A stretch of DNA of 17,750 nucleotides from a virus. Of the stretch, positions 4,983 to 13,741 are shown piece after piece; within the stretch, counting starts at the first letter, position 1; each line of letters begins with the position of its first letter. Location of the stretch: the UHGV virus genome UHGV-0162636; one strand, 5' to 3'. The notes under the pieces are model-generated. The model was not told the DNA's origin, searched no databases, and saw only the letters and a list, made by a program, of their open reading frames with translations. The position numbers and the translations under genes are program-made.

Positions 4983-5008
4983 TTACCTCAGTGTTACCGT
5001 TGAGGTAA
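4983..5008. promoter_or_regulatory. Inverted repeat TTACCTCA-N10-TGAGGTAA overlapping a candidate leftward early promoter (operator-like)
   Basis: 8-bp arms at 4983-4990 and 5001-5008 share the TTACC/GGTAA half-site with the window-wide palindrome. A minus-strand TTGACT (-35, 5031-5036) and weak -10 lie just upstream in transcript terms. Confidence 0.45.
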
Positions 5009-5055
5009 TAATTATCCTTATGTGGTTTGAAGTCAATAGGTATGATTATAAAAAA

Positions 5056-5070
5056 TTACCTGTAAGGTAA
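5056..5070. promoter_or_regulatory. 15-bp palindrome TTACCTGTAAGGTAA (candidate operator, copy A)
   Basis: Perfect TTACCT-N3-AGGTAA. Located between the repressor-gene terminator and the leftward promoter. Confidence 0.55.
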
Positions 5071-5127: not shown

Positions 5128-5718
5128 TTAATCTTGCGCTTTACCGTTCTGAACAATCACAAAATCGACGTAGCTCTCAATCTTGCTTTTCTCGCTCTCA
5201 GGTAACAATGCGTAGCGGGCCCGGTCGTAATGGATGGTCGCCGGGTCGCGGGGATGGATGAGCAACTCATAGCCGCGGCGCCCGAACGCGCCAGCGATCG
5301 CCTCCAGGGTGGAGATAGAAACGCTAACCTCATTGTTCAGCATGCGCTGGATTGTCGCCTGGGCAACGCCGGACGCTTTAGACACCTTTCCCTGAGACGA
5401 CAGGTCGCGGTTATTCTGCATCCACGCTTCGAGATTATGCGCCGCCAGCTGGCCGATATCGGAAGGGGTGATCTCCTCCTGCGGTATGGCAACAGCAGAT
5501 AATGAGTGGTCTACGTCCAGCCAGTTCGACGGCTTGTTCGCCGCCTTCTCAATCTTGCGCGCCACCGTGTCGCCGATAACCTTCTGCCCGCGGGCCCAGC
5601 GGTTCACCAGGTTGGCCTGAGTTCCCAGTTTTTCCGCCAGACGAGTCTGCACCCCGTTAAAGTCACGGTCGATGATATCGTTAATATTCTGCCTGCGGAT
5701 ATCCTGAATACTTTTCAT
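5128..5718 (-). CDS. Prophage repressor (CI-like) with two tandem XRE-type HTH domains and no LexA-like S24 peptidase domain
   Basis: 196-aa ORF. HTH-like segments GVQTRLAEKLGTQANLVNRWARGQ and KASGVAQATIQRMLNNEVSVSISTLEAIAGAF. No Ala-Gly/Ser-Lys autocleavage domain visible. Divergent from the Cro-like gene. Confidence 0.8.
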   Translation of the reverse strand: MKSIQDIRRQNINDIIDRDFNGVQTRLAEKLGTQANLVNRWARGQKVIGDTVARKIEKAANKPSNWLDVDHSLSAVAIPQEEITPSDIGQLAAHNLEAWMQNNRDLSSQGKVSKASGVAQATIQRMLNNEVSVSISTLEAIAGAFGRRGYELLIHPRDPATIHYDRARYALLPESEKSKIESYVDFVIVQNGKAQD

Positions 5719-5773: not shown

Positions 5774-5788
5774 TTACCTCACAGGTAA
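5774..5788. promoter_or_regulatory. 15-bp palindrome TTACCTCACAGGTAA (candidate operator, copy B1) in the repressor/cro intergenic region
   Basis: Perfect TTACCT-N3-AGGTAA in the divergent promoter region; an additional GGTAA half-site follows at 5801-5805. Confidence 0.6.
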
Positions 5789-5821
5789 ATGCACCCGACA
5801 GGTAACAAACCTTGATTATTA

Positions 5822-5837
5822 TTACCTTCTGGGTGAA
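5822..5837. promoter_or_regulatory. Degenerate operator-like site TTACCTTCTGGGTGAA inside a candidate rightward promoter
   Basis: Lies between a TTGATT -35-like hexamer (5812-5817) and a weak -10 upstream of the Cro-like gene. One arm deviates (GGTGA instead of GGTAA). Confidence 0.4.
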
Positions 5838-8051: not shown

Positions 8052-8066
8052 TTACCTTGCTGGTAA
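8052..8066. promoter_or_regulatory. Variant palindrome TTACC-TTGCT-GGTAA (copy C1)
   Basis: Same 5-bp half-sites at the same centre-to-centre spacing as the perfect copies, but the inner base pair differs. Confidence 0.4.
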
Positions 8067-8113
8067 CAAAATATGCGCATAGCTATTTATTTTAACTCTA
8101 ATGTGGATTTAAA

Positions 8114-8128
8114 TTACCTGAGAGGTAA
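8114..8128. promoter_or_regulatory. 15-bp palindrome TTACCTGAGAGGTAA (copy C2) overlapping the ribosome-binding site of the 8132 gene
   Basis: Perfect TTACCT-N3-AGGTAA ending 3 nt before the ATG at 8132; the GAGGT inside it is the likely Shine-Dalgarno. Confidence 0.55.
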
Positions 8129-8131
8129 GCC

Positions 8132-8923
8132 ATGACAGCAATATTAGGGATTGACCCGGGATGCAGCGGGGCGCTGGTTCTCGTAACTGAGCAGGGCGGA
8201 TACATCGACCATCTGGCAATGCCAACCATCAAGGTCGGCACAAAGTCCAGGGTGAACGGCGCAGCGGTAGCTGCATGGGTTCGGCAGTACGGAATCACTC
8301 ATGCGTACCTAGAGCAGGTCGGAGCCATGCCAGGACAGGGAACGGCAAGCATGTTCACGTTCGGGCATGCAGCTGGCGTACCGGCGCTTAAATTCCTCGC
8401 TTCATACATAGCAGGCACGACATTGGCTGGGATGTTTGCAAACCAGATGAACAGCCTATTGACCGGCAATGACCCACTGGATATGACAAAGCCAACTACA
8501 TGGGTGCAGGCTCTGCTGAAGGGCGGCTCATTCGGTATCTACGGCGATTTCCTTTTCCAGGACCATACGCAATATGGATCCAGTATCGCGGCCACCATCG
8601 GGGGGCCGGTGCTGAGCTTCGCCGAGCAGTTAACCAAACTTCTGATCACGAACCCGCAGAAGGCATTGCAGGGCGAAGAAACTTCTTTCGGTGCCGATGC
8701 GCTGAAGACGGCGCGCATGATCACCCCATTCGCCAACCTCTGGTACGCGAAAGCCATTACCAACCACCTGATACTCCAGCAACTTCAGGAGATGGCTAAC
8801 CCAGGGTATAACGACAGGGTGCGTGACAGAGCGCAGCGTGAATTCAACACGACGAGCTGGTGGGAGCCTGGCGAGACAACGCCTCGCCGCGCACCAGACC
8901 TCGGGAAGGCAGTGGGGCAATAA
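8132..8923 (+). CDS. Chimeric ORF: RuvC-like Holliday-junction resolvase N-terminus (about 85 aa) fused to an unrelated C-terminal segment, possibly a virion or DNA-injection protein fragment
   Basis: N-terminus MTAILGIDPGCSGALVLV matches the RuvC-type ILGIDPG motif. After about residue 85 the sequence no longer resembles a resolvase. A complete resolvase would be about 160 aa. Confidence 0.5.
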   Translation: MTAILGIDPGCSGALVLVTEQGGYIDHLAMPTIKVGTKSRVNGAAVAAWVRQYGITHAYLEQVGAMPGQGTASMFTFGHAAGVPALKFLASYIAGTTLAGMFANQMNSLLTGNDPLDMTKPTTWVQALLKGGSFGIYGDFLFQDHTQYGSSIAATIGGPVLSFAEQLTKLLITNPQKALQGEETSFGADALKTARMITPFANLWYAKAITNHLILQQLQEMANPGYNDRVRDRAQREFNTTSWWEPGETTPRRAPDLGKAVGQ

Positions 8924-9114
8924 TGGATATATTGATCAAGATAGGCATGATTCTGTTCTGGTTTGCGTTCTTCGTGGTATGCGGCACGGCGTATGTTTGG
9001 GCGGTAATATTCGCTATCAGAAAAGGTTGGCTTGGCGAGACCTCTGCGAAGGTCGTTTACTTCGCGACCTTCGTCATTCTCGCGGCTATAGTGTTTAAGC
9101 TACCATTACTGTGA
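8923..9114 (+). CDS. Small hydrophobic membrane protein (63 aa, two predicted TM segments)
   Basis: Internal ATG at 8923 overlaps the TAA of the upstream ORF. Sequence MDILIKIGMILFWFAFFVVCGTAYVWAVIFAIRKGWLGE...FATFVILAAIVFKL is strongly hydrophobic. Confidence 0.5.
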   Translation: MDILIKIGMILFWFAFFVVCGTAYVWAVIFAIRKGWLGETSAKVVYFATFVILAAIVFKLPLL

Positions 9115-9123
9115 CATGTCACA

Positions 9124-9146
9124 AGGCCGCTATGCGGCCTTTTTTT
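9124..9146 (+). terminator. Rho-independent terminator (probably works for both convergent genes)
   Basis: AGGCCGC-tat-GCGGCCT stem-loop followed by TTTTTT. The T-run overlaps the stop codon of the minus-strand gene. Confidence 0.6.
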
Positions 9147-9405
9147 AAGTCGTTTCCTGCTTCAGTTTTTCCACACAGTAATCGAGATGCATCTGCAGAT
9201 CCTTCATGGACATCTGCGAGCTGGTGACGTAGTTCACCAAGGCAGTTAGTTCCGCCATCGGGCCATCAACGTTAAATCCGTCCTCATTCAGTTGTCGCAG
9301 CAACGTCATCAGATGTGATTCTTCTACAAGGGAGCGGACGCCTCCCGGCGTGTGTATGCGTTCGGCAAATCCTTTTTCCAGCGGGTGATGATACTGACGT
9401 TGCAT
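9145..9405 (-). CDS. Small SOS-regulated protein (86 aa), candidate antirepressor or moron of unknown function
   Basis: ATG at 9405 with GGAGAA Shine-Dalgarno; the track's TTG start at 9423 is less likely. A near-consensus LexA box lies 20-39 bp upstream. No motif recognised in the protein. Confidence 0.55.
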   Translation of the reverse strand: MQRQYHHPLEKGFAERIHTPGGVRSLVEESHLMTLLRQLNEDGFNVDGPMAELTALVNYVTSSQMSMKDLQMHLDYCVEKLKQETT

Positions 9406-9424
9406 CTCATGTTCTCCATGCAAT

Positions 9425-9444
9425 TACTGTATGTATGTACAGTA
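9425..9444. promoter_or_regulatory. LexA (SOS) box TACTGTATGTATGTACAGTA
   Basis: CTGT-N8-ACAG with an AT-rich spacer, matching the enterobacterial SOS-box consensus TACTGTATATATATACAGTA at 18 of 20 positions. Immediately upstream of the 9145..9405 gene. Confidence 0.65.
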
Positions 9445-9481
9445 GCAAAACTTTGAAACACTATCCAGCACGATATGAGCT

Positions 9482-9496
9482 TTACCTGAAAGGTAA
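9482..9496. promoter_or_regulatory. 15-bp palindrome TTACCTGAAAGGTAA (copy D) between the SOS-regulated gene and the tailspike gene
   Basis: Perfect TTACCT-N3-AGGTAA; a further AGGTAATAA half-site at 9541-9549. A TATAAG -10-like hexamer lies about 30 bp downstream on the plus strand. Confidence 0.55.
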
Positions 9497-9600
9497 TAAC
9501 TTTCATGATTGTTATTCATTCAATTCATATAAGGTTTGCTAGGTAATAAACTGTCCAGATGATGCATGCGCGCCGGGCGCTGCTTTATTGGAGACAGGCC

Positions 9601-12351
9601 ATGACGGTATCAACCGTAGTTGACCATAACGATTACACCGGGAACGGCGTTACGACATCATTCCCTTACACCTTCCGAATTTTCAAGAAAGCAGACCTTA
9701 CCGTTTCAGTGATTGACCTGAGCGAAAACATCACGGTACTGGTGCTGGATACTGACTACACCGTGACGAACGCTGGTGGCTTTAACGGCGGAAGTGTTGT
9801 TCTTACCTCGCCGCTGGCGAACGGTTGGCAAATATCGATTGCCCGCGAGCTGGAGGCAACGCAGGAAACAGACCTGCGCAATCAGGGTAAGTTTTTCGCT
9901 GAGGTGCATGAAGATGCATTCGATAAACTGACGATGCTGATTCAGCAGGTGGGCAGTTTGTTCAGCCTGGCATTGCGTAAACCGTCGTTTGTGGCAAATT
10001 ATTACGATGCCATGAGTAACTATATTAGAAATCTGCGAGATCCGGTAAGGCCACAGGATGCAGCAACTAAAAATTATGCTGATTCATTAAGCGAAGGAAA
10101 TACTTCACATACAGATTTGTTATTCAGCAGAACGCTTCGTACGGAAGAAAGCATCCCACAATTACCATCTATTGAGTTACGAAAAAATAAAATTGTTGGT
10201 ATGGATTCATCTGGTAATCCGATTATGCTTCTTCCGGAAAGCGGAAGCGCAGCGGATGTCCTCATTGAATTAGCAAGCACTGATGATGGGAAGGGGGATT
10301 CCTTAATTGGCGTAAAACAGCCTTATGCTGGAGCGGTAGGGCGTACGCAGCATGATTTTAACGCGCAGTTTATCAGTATTAAAGACTTCTTAGGCGATGA
10401 ATATTCCGGCGCAACGGACGCCTCACCGGCATTCTCTACCGCAAACGCCCTAGTGCCAAAGGGCAAGCAAATTCTCGTTCCTGCTGGAAACTACATGCTC
10501 AATACCGAAGTGGACTGCTACGGCCGCCACTTCATTTTTGAAGAGCCAGTAACGATAACAGGAACCGGATATCTTCGCCGTGCTGTTGTTCAGCGTATTG
10601 ATGGTGGTTCCGGGGCTGTAAGTATTGGAACTGAAGGCGTTCGCGGTTCGGATGGGCACCCGCAATTTGGTGTTAACTTCAGGTTTGGGAGCAATGCTGG
10701 CAATGTATCCGGTCTACAGGTTGGTGGCGGAAACCCAATTAATGGAACTTATGGTAATGTTTTCTTTCCGGATGGCTATTCGTCATGGACTTCAGTACAA
10801 CCAAGTAAATACCCAAGCCCGACAGAGATCGCAGTCCAGCCAGCTTCTCGCGCGGGTAAATGCACAACTGTTGCCGGAACTAATATCGTAAATGTAAATA
10901 CAGGACCAGGCTTAACGGTTGATGAAATTGGAAAAACAATATGGATCAGGGATGCTGGGTATACGGTGGTATCAGTGGCATCAGGATCATTTACAGTGAA
11001 AAACATCGATAACAGCGCGGTGTCATTTCCGTCATCAATATCTGCAACCTATGTATGCTGTTACATTTGGGGGCAGGGTAAATGCAATGTATCGGGGAAG
11101 AAAATTATTCGTATATCTGGCGACCCATTTATTCCGCTCAACAATATACAAACTACGTTCGTAGTGAATGGCATTACGACTGTACAGGCATCATATTCTG
11201 ATTCTTGGTTAGCCACACTTACCGCGGATGTAGGTATTGCTGATAATGTCGACTATTATTGGTGGGGTAGTGTAGATAACTTAGTTACTGCATTGCGTAT
11301 GCATCGTGTTACCGGAGCTGGATTTGAAGAAAATATTTCTCTTATTGCTTCTGCTCGGGGATTTTATCACCTACACGCAGCTGGTGGTAACGGTGACCAG
11401 TATCCAGTATTTATTGGTAGTGGGTGGGATCCGGACGGCAATGCACGACGACAGATCACTGTTGATGGTGTAAATGGCATAGTCACTATAGGGGGGGCAT
11501 ACGGGCGAGCATGTGCAGAGTTCGGTTATCGCACATACTCTTCTGGAGACGTGAATAGATTTCGTTTTGATAGTGCCACTACTGGTGATCAACCTGCTTT
11601 TAGCGCTGTCGGCCCTGATGCGAATATAAATACTATTCTGGCCGCGAAAGGTAATGGGTTTATTCAAATAAATAATGAACTACATTTTAATGCCGCTATT
11701 TACCCGCATGTAGATAATATGTTTACCGTTGGTAAATCTGGAAATCGCCCTTCATCTATTTGGGCTGCAAATGGAACAATTCAAACATCTGATGGAACTT
11801 TAAAAACTGATGTGGCTGAAAGCAACTTATCGATAGAGTTTATTAAAGGGCTGCATCCGGTATCATATCGTTTCATCAGTGGGGGGAATGTTGTTGAAGA
11901 AATTGATGACGGATTTGAATATATAGAACGGCAGGTCACTGAGATTATCCATAGTACAGAAGAGATTAACGAGCGAATTAATGTTGATGGTGTAATCAAA
12001 TTTGTAAGAAAATATGTTACAAAAGAAGTTGAGCACCCGGTATTTGATACTGTTAACGTTGAAGACGAAAACGGTAGTTTCCTTGAGACGGTCAGCATTC
12101 CTCGCATGGAAACTGTAAGGGTACCAAAGAAAAAAACGGTTATCACTTCGGTTGCCGGTAAGCGTACCCATTACGGCTTTATCGCTCAGGAAGTTAAAGC
12201 CCTACTTGATCAACTCGGCACTGGCGACTTTGGTGGATATGTAGAGGGTGAAGATGGGGAGATTGGTTTACGTTATGAACAATTCATAGCACCAATTGTA
12301 TCAGCGATGCAAGATGTAATAAAAAGAATTGAAAAATTGGAAGGCAATTAA
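9601..12351 (+). CDS. Tailspike/tail fibre protein: conserved N-terminal anchor, central beta-helix depolymerase-like domain, C-terminal intramolecular chaperone (peptidase S74-like) domain
   Basis: ATG at 9601 with GGAGACAGG Shine-Dalgarno (the track's start at 9559 is less likely). N-terminus TVSTVVDHNDYTGNGVTTSFPYTF...DAATKNYADS is tail-fibre-anchor-like. Centre has DDGKGDSLIGVKQP...FISIKDFLGDEYSGATDASPAF, resembling pectate-lyase-fold tailspikes. C-terminus SDGTLKTDV...HYGFIAQEVKALL...IEKLEG is typical of auto-cleaving chaperone domains. Confidence 0.8.
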   Translation: MTVSTVVDHNDYTGNGVTTSFPYTFRIFKKADLTVSVIDLSENITVLVLDTDYTVTNAGGFNGGSVVLTSPLANGWQISIARELEATQETDLRNQGKFFAEVHEDAFDKLTMLIQQVGSLFSLALRKPSFVANYYDAMSNYIRNLRDPVRPQDAATKNYADSLSEGNTSHTDLLFSRTLRTEESIPQLPSIELRKNKIVGMDSSGNPIMLLPESGSAADVLIELASTDDGKGDSLIGVKQPYAGAVGRTQHDFNAQFISIKDFLGDEYSGATDASPAFSTANALVPKGKQILVPAGNYMLNTEVDCYGRHFIFEEPVTITGTGYLRRAVVQRIDGGSGAVSIGTEGVRGSDGHPQFGVNFRFGSNAGNVSGLQVGGGNPINGTYGNVFFPDGYSSWTSVQPSKYPSPTEIAVQPASRAGKCTTVAGTNIVNVNTGPGLTVDEIGKTIWIRDAGYTVVSVASGSFTVKNIDNSAVSFPSSISATYVCCYIWGQGKCNVSGKKIIRISGDPFIPLNNIQTTFVVNGITTVQASYSDSWLATLTADVGIADNVDYYWWGSVDNLVTALRMHRVTGAGFEENISLIASARGFYHLHAAGGNGDQYPVFIGSGWDPDGNARRQITVDGVNGIVTIGGAYGRACAEFGYRTYSSGDVNRFRFDSATTGDQPAFSAVGPDANINTILAAKGNGFIQINNELHFNAAIYPHVDNMFTVGKSGNRPSSIWAANGTIQTSDGTLKTDVAESNLSIEFIKGLHPVSYRFISGGNVVEEIDDGFEYIERQVTEIIHSTEEINERINVDGVIKFVRKYVTKEVEHPVFDTVNVEDENGSFLETVSIPRMETVRVPKKKTVITSVAGKRTHYGFIAQEVKALLDQLGTGDFGGYVEGEDGEIGLRYEQFIAPIVSAMQDVIKRIEKLEGN

Positions 12352-12358
12352 GTAGATT

Positions 12359-12391
12359 GGTGGGGCTTACGCCCCACCTTTTTATTTTTTT
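12359..12391 (+). terminator. Rho-independent terminator after the tailspike gene
   Basis: GGTGGGGC-ttac-GCCCCACC stem-loop followed by TTTTTATTTTTTT. Confidence 0.7.
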
Positions 12392-13500
12392 AATTCTGAT
12401 AATTGTTTTTCGATTTTTGAAACTCTTTCATCAAGTTTTAGTAGGTCATTTAATTTCTTGCCATTAATGTAAACATCCCCATTAATGTAAACGCCGCCAT
12501 CGTTGTCGACTGCAAGAACTTCTTTAGTATTATCATTTGAGACTATACGAGTTCCACCTTCGCCGTTTCTTATTGAAATCCAGTTGCGCTTATCTTCTGA
12601 ACCGTTCCAGCGAGTGCCTCCATATATTTCTCCCGACTTTCCTTCATTCAAGATAATACCGGTACCAACACCTTCTGTGCGTGCCTGCATTATCCCTTCG
12701 CGGAATAGAGATCGCCTAAAGTCAAAACCCATCTTGGCTTTATCAAAATCAGCAACAATGAGCCTGCCATAATCAGCTATAGAATTCTTGAAGTAAATCC
12801 CACTTTCCCAGACACCGCGACGCTTCTCTGCTGGTACATCTTTATCTGTATCTTCGCTTCGCACTTCTACGGCCATGGAGTTTGGATTTCCAAAGCCAAC
12901 TATCTGTAAGCCCACTTTGGACTTATTGGGGAATACTCCGGGCTTGCCGCCATTAAGGACATCAATCTCAACCCCTACGAGTTGGTTATCATAGTCTTCT
13001 GGATTGAATGTGAAATCTGAACCAGCCGGTGCCAGATCATGATATTTCCCATCCTTTGTAAAGGCCTTGAAATATGAACGAGCGCTAAAGAATGCCCCCC
13101 ACGCCTTTGAGTCTTTAGCAATGGCAGCAGAATCACCCCAGATGGAGACAGCGTTGGTGTTTGGTTTAAAATTCCATACTTCACTCAGGAAGTTTTGATA
13201 GTGATTGTGAACGCTATCATAATTATCGGCATTCTGATTTGTTAAATCATGGGCTTTTACTGGCTCACCTTTCCAGTTGTAGAACTGTGAATTAGGTTCA
13301 ATGACATCAGTGAGAATTTCATGACCGCGCAGGGCTGTATCAAGACCTTCGTATTGAGTCCAAATGCCATTTGCTCTTGGGTGATTACCTCTTACAGTAA
13401 CCTCATTTAATTTTTCATTGCCATTATCATCTTGTGAATATCCCGGCCCTGATATAAAAAGGCAACTTAATCCAAAAACAAAAAAAGAATTAACTTTCAT
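12382..13500 (-). CDS. Secreted protein of unknown function with Sec-type signal peptide (AT-rich cargo gene)
   Basis: 372-aa ORF. N-terminus MKVNSFFVFGLSCLFISGPGYSQ has the n/h/c-region architecture of a signal peptide. C-terminus has GGVYINGDVYINGKKL and a coiled-coil-like tail. GAGGAA Shine-Dalgarno. GC content well below the flanking phage genes. Confidence 0.7.
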   Translation of the reverse strand: MKVNSFFVFGLSCLFISGPGYSQDDNGNEKLNEVTVRGNHPRANGIWTQYEGLDTALRGHEILTDVIEPNSQFYNWKGEPVKAHDLTNQNADNYDSVHNHYQNFLSEVWNFKPNTNAVSIWGDSAAIAKDSKAWGAFFSARSYFKAFTKDGKYHDLAPAGSDFTFNPEDYDNQLVGVEIDVLNGGKPGVFPNKSKVGLQIVGFGNPNSMAVEVRSEDTDKDVPAEKRRGVWESGIYFKNSIADYGRLIVADFDKAKMGFDFRRSLFREGIMQARTEGVGTGIILNEGKSGEIYGGTRWNGSEDKRNWISIRNGEGGTRIVSNDNTKEVLAVDNDGGVYINGDVYINGKKLNDLLKLDERVSKIEKQLSELKK

Positions 13501-13501
13501 C

Positions 13502-13741
13502 TTACAAATTCCTCACTATTATTACATTTACATTTTGTAGCAGGATGGTATGTTGCCAAATTTTTTGGTTGTTATAATTATCATCACATCTTTCAGTGTC
13601 TGAAATAAAACATTCGTGTTCGTTTTTATATTTATTCCACGCTTTTTGCTCCATTTGATTATCGATTGCGGAAAGAGCAAGAACTGCAAACAGCGCTATT
13701 GCAAAAGAGAGGGATATGTATTTGATAATTTTGCCAATCAT
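13502..13741 (-). CDS. Small membrane-anchored or secreted Cys-containing protein (79 aa), co-oriented with the secreted protein
   Basis: Hydrophobic segment ISLSFAIALFAVLALSAI followed by a polar region with three Cys (ECFISDTERC). No clear Shine-Dalgarno; AT-rich. Confidence 0.35.
   Translation of the reverse strand: MIGKIIKYISLSFAIALFAVLALSAIDNQMEQKAWNKYKNEHECFISDTERCDDNYNNQKIWQHTILLQNVNVIIVRNL

Follow-up and report, generated by a model that had tools for sequence, protein, structure and literature searches.

A probable SOS-controlled antirepressor gene of the Ant family in a deleted epsilon15-like prophage of Escherichia coli

The window (the whole stretch of 17,750 nucleotides analysed here, UHGV virus genome UHGV-0162636) is an epsilon15-like (Uetakevirus) prophage inserted between guaA and yfgI, an assignment that follows from its DNA match to Enterobacter phage BUCT554, a Uetakevirus, and from the tailspike gene that lies next to the locus of interest. 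The 801 bases around the small minus-strand gene at this locus, which we refer to as ant, have matches in 23 of 5426 complete E. coli genomes, and BUCT554 is the one phage matched at the DNA level. The features of the region are listed in Table 1. The gene order (the end of the late operon, a small membrane protein, ant on the opposite strand, and the tailspike) is the same in the full-length prophage EP91B and in BUCT554, SPC32H, SPC32N and epsilon15. The longest tailspike ORF starts at position 9559; the start that all relatives keep, which is also the one used by RefSeq, is ATGACGGT at 9601 and has GGAGA before it, and the ant-tailspike intergenic region is 195 bp in length (9406-9600). A conserved GC-rich palindrome, GCGCGCCGGGCGC, is located just upstream of the tailspike start at about 9568-9580.

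Table 1. Features of the ant locus and of the related repressor region, with the basis for each assignment.
Feature	Coordinates	Strand	Basis
Two exact probable operators, upstream of leftward early operon	4994..5070	.	Repressor sites annotated at the corresponding position in epsilon15
rep, repressor of 196 aa with two HTH regions, S24 domain lacking; presumed Ant target	5128..5718	-	PDB, Pfam
Probable operator cluster between rep and cro-like gene	5774..5836	.	5774 exact, 5791 with 2 mismatches, 5822 with 1 mismatch
Two exact probable operators, upstream of resolvase gene	8052..8128	.	epsilon15 repressor site upstream of RuvC-like gene
Fusion ORF from ~22.7-kb deletion	8132..8923	+	Junction 8378-8380, GTA microhomology, mapped against EP91B
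63-aa protein with two TM segments, last late-operon gene, converging on ant	8923..9114	+	phrog_29212 (E 5e-32), hydropathy, epsilon15 gp18 equivalent
Hairpin common to the converging genes	9123..9141	+	T-run on + strand only
ant, 86-aa predicted antirepressor, orthologue of SPC32H Ant	9145..9405	-	Identity, PDB match, phrog_450, dN/dS
Shine-Dalgarno GGAG, 8 nt before ant ATG	9414..9417	-	Within invariant block TGCATGGAGA
LexA (SOS) box	9425..9444	.	20-mer consensus match, heterology index, both arms kept in 7 of 8 Uetakevirus loci
Predicted ant promoter: -35 TGGATA (9462-9467), 17-nt spacer, -10 TACTGT (9439-9444)	9439..9467	-	Conservation only
Rep-operator-like palindrome TTACCTGAAAGGTAA, ant-tailspike intergenic	9482..9496	.	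Equivalent epsilon15 site annotated 'protein_bind: repressor'
Tailspike gene, divergent from ant	9601..12351	+	PHROG tail/tailspike families, RefSeq start in EP91B, alignments

The initial annotation of this DNA, made from the sequence without database searches, treated the window as a prophage, which is correct as far as it goes, but the prophage is a 16-kb deletion remnant. In comparison with EP91B it is missing ~22.7 kb, from the terminase to the injection proteins and including the portal and capsid genes. The deletion has created an in-frame fusion in which resolvase codons 1-83 are followed by the ~180 codons for the C-terminus of the last virion or injection protein; residues 1-83 of the product match the Holliday-junction resolvase (RuvC-like) family phrog_1770, and residues 77-261 match the end of the virion protein family phrog_684. 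As a result rep and ant, which are ~26 kb apart in the intact prophage, are separated by 3.4 kb in the window. The deletion junction is present in none of the 5426 complete E. coli genomes. There is, however, an independent remnant of the same prophage in E. coli Z226-5 (NZ_CP159644.1, 7940-8380), in which another deletion has brought the replication P gene up against the middle of the hairpin that separates ant from the converging late operon. The Z226-5 locus also has a copy of ISEc53, with a ClbS/DfsB gene, inserted inside the ant LexA box, with the loss of the left arm TACTGT and the predicted promoter.

The same hairpin had been proposed as a terminator belonging to ant. The structure is real, but it has a T-run on the plus strand only, the ant strand reads UUGUGACAUGU after the hairpin with no T-run, and the equivalent stem-loop is annotated in the epsilon15 record as the terminator of the converging late operon; we therefore regard it as a hairpin shared by the two genes and not as ant's own terminator. 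Beside it, at 9109-9120, is a 12-bp palindrome (GTGACATGTCAC) that forms a second small hairpin and is kept in BUCT554, SPC32H and epsilon15 even though the adjacent small membrane gene differs.

The 86-aa product of ant is 79.1% identical across 86 of 86 residues to the protein annotated as 'ant: anti-repressor protein' in SPC32H and SPC32N, and a phmmer search of the PDB returns a single match, 5D50 chain E ('Anti-repressor protein'), at E 5.8e-44 over residues 1-86. A tblastn search with the protein returns 35 phage records, the majority of them Uetakevirus and related phages with Enterobacter, Salmonella, Escherichia or Klebsiella as hosts. Conservation among these relatives identifies ant as a core gene across the genus and not a variable moron, and dN/dS values of 0.04-0.12 against five homologues are indicative of purifying selection. 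By sequence comparison the product thus belongs to the Ant family of epsilon15-like phages, which is already characterised (Kim & Ryu 2013, J Virol 87:11775; Kim et al. 2016, PNAS 113:E2480; as represented in PMC7380047 and PMC9638917), and the earlier suggestion that it might represent a new antirepressor family does not hold. That the family could not be named initially is readily explained by its annotation: Pfam and NCBIfam scans match no domain model, and PHROGs labels the matching family, phrog_450 (E 4e-43, covering 85 of 88 positions), as 'unknown function'. In RefSeq the protein is hypothetical (WP_066019107.1). We also considered a relationship to DinI or Tum and rejected it, as a Pfam scan at E <= 0.01 gives no DinI match, in agreement with the initial reading; a Bro-N (PF02498) or ANT domain was likewise rejected, there being no such match in the Pfam scan. 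A single-sequence AlphaFold2 model of Ant is all-helical but of low confidence (pLDDT 62.5, pTM 0.34), and a Foldseek comparison of this low-confidence model with the PDB gave no match at E <= 0.001, with 5D50 not among the matches. With 79% sequence identity, however, it is near certain that Ant has the fold of 5D50 chain E.

The rep product matches chain A ('Repressor') of the same crystal structure, 5D50, at E 3e-48, as well as 5D4Z_A (E 1.7e-22), and both partners of the crystallised complex thus have homologues in the window. A Pfam scan of Rep matches HTH_3 twice and gives no Peptidase_S24 match, as expected from the earlier description of a repressor with two HTH domains that lacks an autocleavage domain. 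The resemblance to the SPC32H repressor is nonetheless considerably lower than that of Ant, with 45-47% identity overall and 40% in the C-terminal domain, which is the part of SPC32H Rep that Ant is reported to bind. The repressors of these phages fall into two types that are ~45% identical to each other, with the window, EP91B, BUCT554 and phiV10 having one type, and SPC32H and epsilon15 having the other. Ant is 76-85% identical across both types, which suggests either a conserved Ant-binding surface on the repressors or cross-reactivity between immunity types. With Rep types this far apart, we infer the binding of the window Ant to the window Rep from their co-inheritance.

Six exact copies of the palindrome TTACC-N5-GGTAA, 15 bp each, are present in the window (at 4994, 5056, 5774, 8052, 8114 and 9482), where 0.01 would be expected. 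The same repeats are found in the rep-cro region of SPC32H, and we note that the six sites are probable Rep operators. The site between ant and the tailspike gene is 37 bp from the LexA box, and in an alignment of eight phages, extending from the tailspike start to the ant stop, the palindrome ATTACC-N5-GGTRA is invariant or nearly so. Its position between the two genes raises the possibility that Rep may control the tailspike promoter or exert feedback on ant.

The initial annotation had also called an SOS box in front of ant, and this has stood up well. The sequence TACTGTATGTATGTACAGTA, which on the ant strand reads TACTGTACATACATACAGTA, has two mismatches to the full 20-mer consensus TACTGTATATATATACAGTA, and sites within three mismatches occur in 0 of 200 shuffled sequences. 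The minimal CTGT-N8-ACAG motif is not significant by itself, as one is found where 0.24 are expected per window, and at least one is present in 44 of the 200 shuffles. With a matrix derived from 20 E. coli LexA sites, the heterology index of the box is 2.2, within the range of strongly bound sites, and that of the next best site in the window is 12.4; the index should be read as supportive and not authoritative. The box and that of sulA differ at a single position. On the minus strand the order is TTTTGC, TACTGTACATACATACAGTA, ATTGCATGGAGAACATGAG and the ATG of ant, which places the box 19 nt from the start codon of ant and 156 nt from that of the tailspike gene; the distance to ant, given earlier as 20 bp, is shorter by one. 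The good Shine-Dalgarno sequence ascribed to the gene is also present.

Conservation within the eight-phage alignment adds to this picture. Both arms of the LexA box are conserved in seven of the eight loci while the flanks vary, and the window box aligns column for column with that of SPC32H. The block TGCATGGAGA, which includes the Shine-Dalgarno sequence, is invariant or nearly so, and TGCTGGATAG is found unchanged in all eight loci, each time 17 nt upstream of the box, with a spacer that varies in sequence. The ant promoter is predicted from this conservation alone, since a consensus scan of 9380-9620 found no sigma-70 promoter, and its -10 element is the left arm of the LexA box. SPC32H and SPC32N differ by a single base in the aligned region, the right arm of the box having ACAG in the former and AAAG in the latter. 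One change in the LexA site is reported to render Ant synthesis constitutive and to drive SPC32N into lytic growth. We infer that E. coli LexA binds the box at this locus and that ant is inducible by DNA damage. In the homologous loci of Klebsiella phages, with Ant proteins 58-60% identical, the left arm of the box is ATGT rather than CTGT and is ~20 nt upstream of the start, and LexA control may be weaker or altered in these phages.

Taken together, the orthology, the synteny and the aligned box columns indicate that 9145..9405 is very probably ant, the SOS-controlled antirepressor of an epsilon15-like prophage, and they lend support to the initial proposal of a small LexA-controlled protein directed against a repressor that does not cleave itself. 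In undamaged cells, host LexA would occupy the box, which overlaps the predicted ant promoter, and ant would be silent; Rep, as a tetramer on its TTACC-N5-GGTAA operators, would keep the early promoters shut. Following DNA damage and activation of RecA, self-cleavage of LexA would allow Ant to be made, and Ant would then bind Rep, dismantle its DNA-binding assembly and free the operators, such that the lytic programme is derepressed without cleavage of Rep. With the virion genes gone from this remnant, only the leftover genes would be derepressed, with no phage production, and the effects would be limited to recombination, replication, tailspike and possibly lysis genes, or the switch may act in trans on a related prophage. 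The components of this scheme that are seen in the window are the orthology of Ant and Rep to the solved SPC32H complex, the identical synteny, the conserved LexA box and a Rep that lacks an S24 domain. The SPC32H literature supplies the control by LexA and the break-up of the Rep tetramer by Ant, and the action of E. coli LexA at the box, the pairing of the window Ant with the window Rep, and the exact promoter are extrapolated to the window. In the account given in PMC7380047 (citing Kim & Ryu 2013), the SOS response and LexA self-cleavage in these Salmonella prophages lead to production of an antirepressor that inhibits the repressor by protein-protein interaction, and as summarised in PMC9638917 (citing Kim et al. 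2016), the DNA-binding form of SPC32H Rep is a tetramer, which is broken when a tetrameric Ant binds two Rep dimers. A more recent description has Rep trapped by Ant in a non-functional conformation (bioRxiv 10.1101/2025.11.27.690993).

Whether such a switch has any consequence in this strain is a separate issue. A plausible view, to which we would give a little less than even weight, is that it is a fossil circuit, with Ant and Rep intact only because the deletion is recent and with no selected switch function in the strain; at most, the leftover early genes would be expressed at a cost during the SOS response. Such a view bears on the consequence of the genes and not on their identity, and it is compatible with the Ant-Rep switch described above. 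The Rep and Ant proteins are 99.5-100% identical to those of the full-length EP91B prophage, with 99.8% identity in the rest of the window, and the absence of the junction from the complete E. coli genomes is consistent with a recent event; the second deletion in Z226-5, together with the insertion in its LexA box, points to ongoing decay. Against this, int, rep, ant, the tailspike, the orphan genes and the lysis cassette are still present in both of the independent remnants, which leaves room for selection, although two cases prove nothing. One form that a retained function could take, and which we consider rather unlikely, is that a single Ant inactivates both Rep types, as the Gifsy antirepressors act on more than one repressor, so that the remnant, once triggered by SOS, could induce other Uetakevirus prophages or incoming phages in trans; alternatively, it could be a retained module that switches on, upon DNA damage, the operator-flanked tailspike gene, the orphan secreted protein and the lysis genes. 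That one Ant may inactivate both types of repressor is suggested by its being far more conserved than the Rep proteins with which it travels.

Three further explanations bear on the target and the function of ant itself. The window Ant might spare the window Rep and act only on the repressors of other prophages, or Rep might be removed by another route. The low identity of the window Rep to the Ant-binding SPC32H Rep, particularly in the C-terminal domain, would fit with this, as would the finding that antirepressors can act on non-cognate repressors and miss their apparent cognates (Lemire et al. 2011, PMC3121763). It is improbable, however, as EP91B, BUCT554 and phiV10 combine this Rep type with an ant gene and a LexA box that are conserved, a Rep that lacks S24 has no alternative SOS route, and one operator motif is common to both Rep types. 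A role for the LexA box chiefly in control of the divergent tailspike gene, rather than of ant, could be envisaged from the palindromic nature of the box and its location in the shared intergenic region, but is very improbable given the much shorter distance to ant and the effect reported for the SPC32N box mutation on Ant synthesis; GenBank records KC911856 and KC911857 also annotate the gene beside the box as ant. Finally, the initial annotation had offered the alternative of an SOS-induced moron that acts on the host, of which a DinI-like modulator would be one example. A small product, a LexA box and a position outside all Pfam and NCBIfam families are in keeping with this, but it is scarcely credible for a core gene of the genus whose product lacks a DinI match and has 79% full-length identity to a protein crystallised in complex with the phage repressor.

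Several known systems are similar to this one to differing extents. The closest is the Ant-Rep pair of the Uetakevirus SPC32H (PDB 5D50, 5D4Z), which shares with the window an Ant of 86 aa, an ant gene in the same position and divergent from the tailspike, a LexA box at the same distance from the ATG, a two-HTH, non-S24 Rep, and the TTACC-N5-GGTAA operator motif. It differs in that its host is Salmonella and not E. coli, the window Rep is of another sequence type, and the window pair is part of a deletion remnant. The GfoA and GfhA antirepressors of the Gifsy-1 and Gifsy-3 prophages (Lemire et al. 2011, PMC3121763) are also small, encoded outside the immunity region, under direct LexA control, and directed against a non-cleavable repressor, which is released from DNA through formation of a complex, but they are unrelated proteins of lambdoid siphophage systems. 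In the comparison made in PMC9638917, their interaction is reported to involve dimers, in contrast to the tetramer of SPC32H Ant. We detected no family common to the Gifsy antirepressors and the window Ant in Pfam or PHROGs.

Coliphage 186 encodes a further LexA-controlled antirepressor, Tum (Shearwin et al. 1998, cited in PMC7380047), which is located far from the immunity region and acts on a non-cleavable CI. Tum is a protein of 146 aa with a DinI-like part, whereas the window Ant has no DinI match in the Pfam scan, and 186 is a P2-like myovirus. In the podovirus P22, the ant gene of the immI region lies just upstream of the tailspike gene. The position next to a tailspike is thus shared with the window gene, although P22 Ant is ~300 aa, is under the control of Mnt and Arc and not LexA, and is dispensable for SOS induction (PMC7380047), and the window Ant has no ANT/Bro-N domain.

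Some of the relatives have a second, larger antirepressor of the Bro-N type encoded just downstream of ant, as in phiV10 (19646-20230, minus strand), Tyrion (gp20) and Klebsiella phage ST11-OXA245phi3.2. The C-terminus of the phiV10 Bro-N protein (phiV10p23, residues 150-180) is 45% identical over 31 aa to Ant residues 3-33 (E 4e-7), and the C-terminus of phrog_1760 ('anti-repressor') matches Ant residues 28-76. In view of these resemblances, the Ant sequence may be a module that is common to larger antirepressors.

Between the tailspike and lysis genes, a slot in which relatives carry the O-antigen-modifying genes gtrABC, oac or an O-polymerase gene, the window has two minus-strand genes. The first (12382-13500) codes for a 372-aa protein with an N-terminal signal peptide and no TM helix, for which there is no match in Pfam, PHROGs, NCBIfam, the PDB or 50,697 phage records, and the adjacent gene (13502-13741) codes for a protein of 79 aa that has a hydrophobic, anchor-like stretch at its N-terminus. 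A membrane O-antigen polymerase was considered for the 372-aa ORF and rejected because of the signal peptide and the lack of TM helices. The two proteins are candidates for a new surface-modifying or exclusion function.

The switch described here is not novel, as it corresponds to the known Ant-Rep switch of epsilon15-like phages. These sequence comparisons suggest that the SOS-LexA-Ant-Rep route of induction of the SPC32H type extends to E. coli prophages of the same genus. They also expose a gap in annotation, with Ant hypothetical in RefSeq, of unknown function in PHROGs, and without a model in Pfam or NCBIfam, even though the complex has been solved by crystallography. With a family model for Ant, such prophages would be annotated correctly and flagged as DNA-damage inducible despite their non-cleavable repressor.
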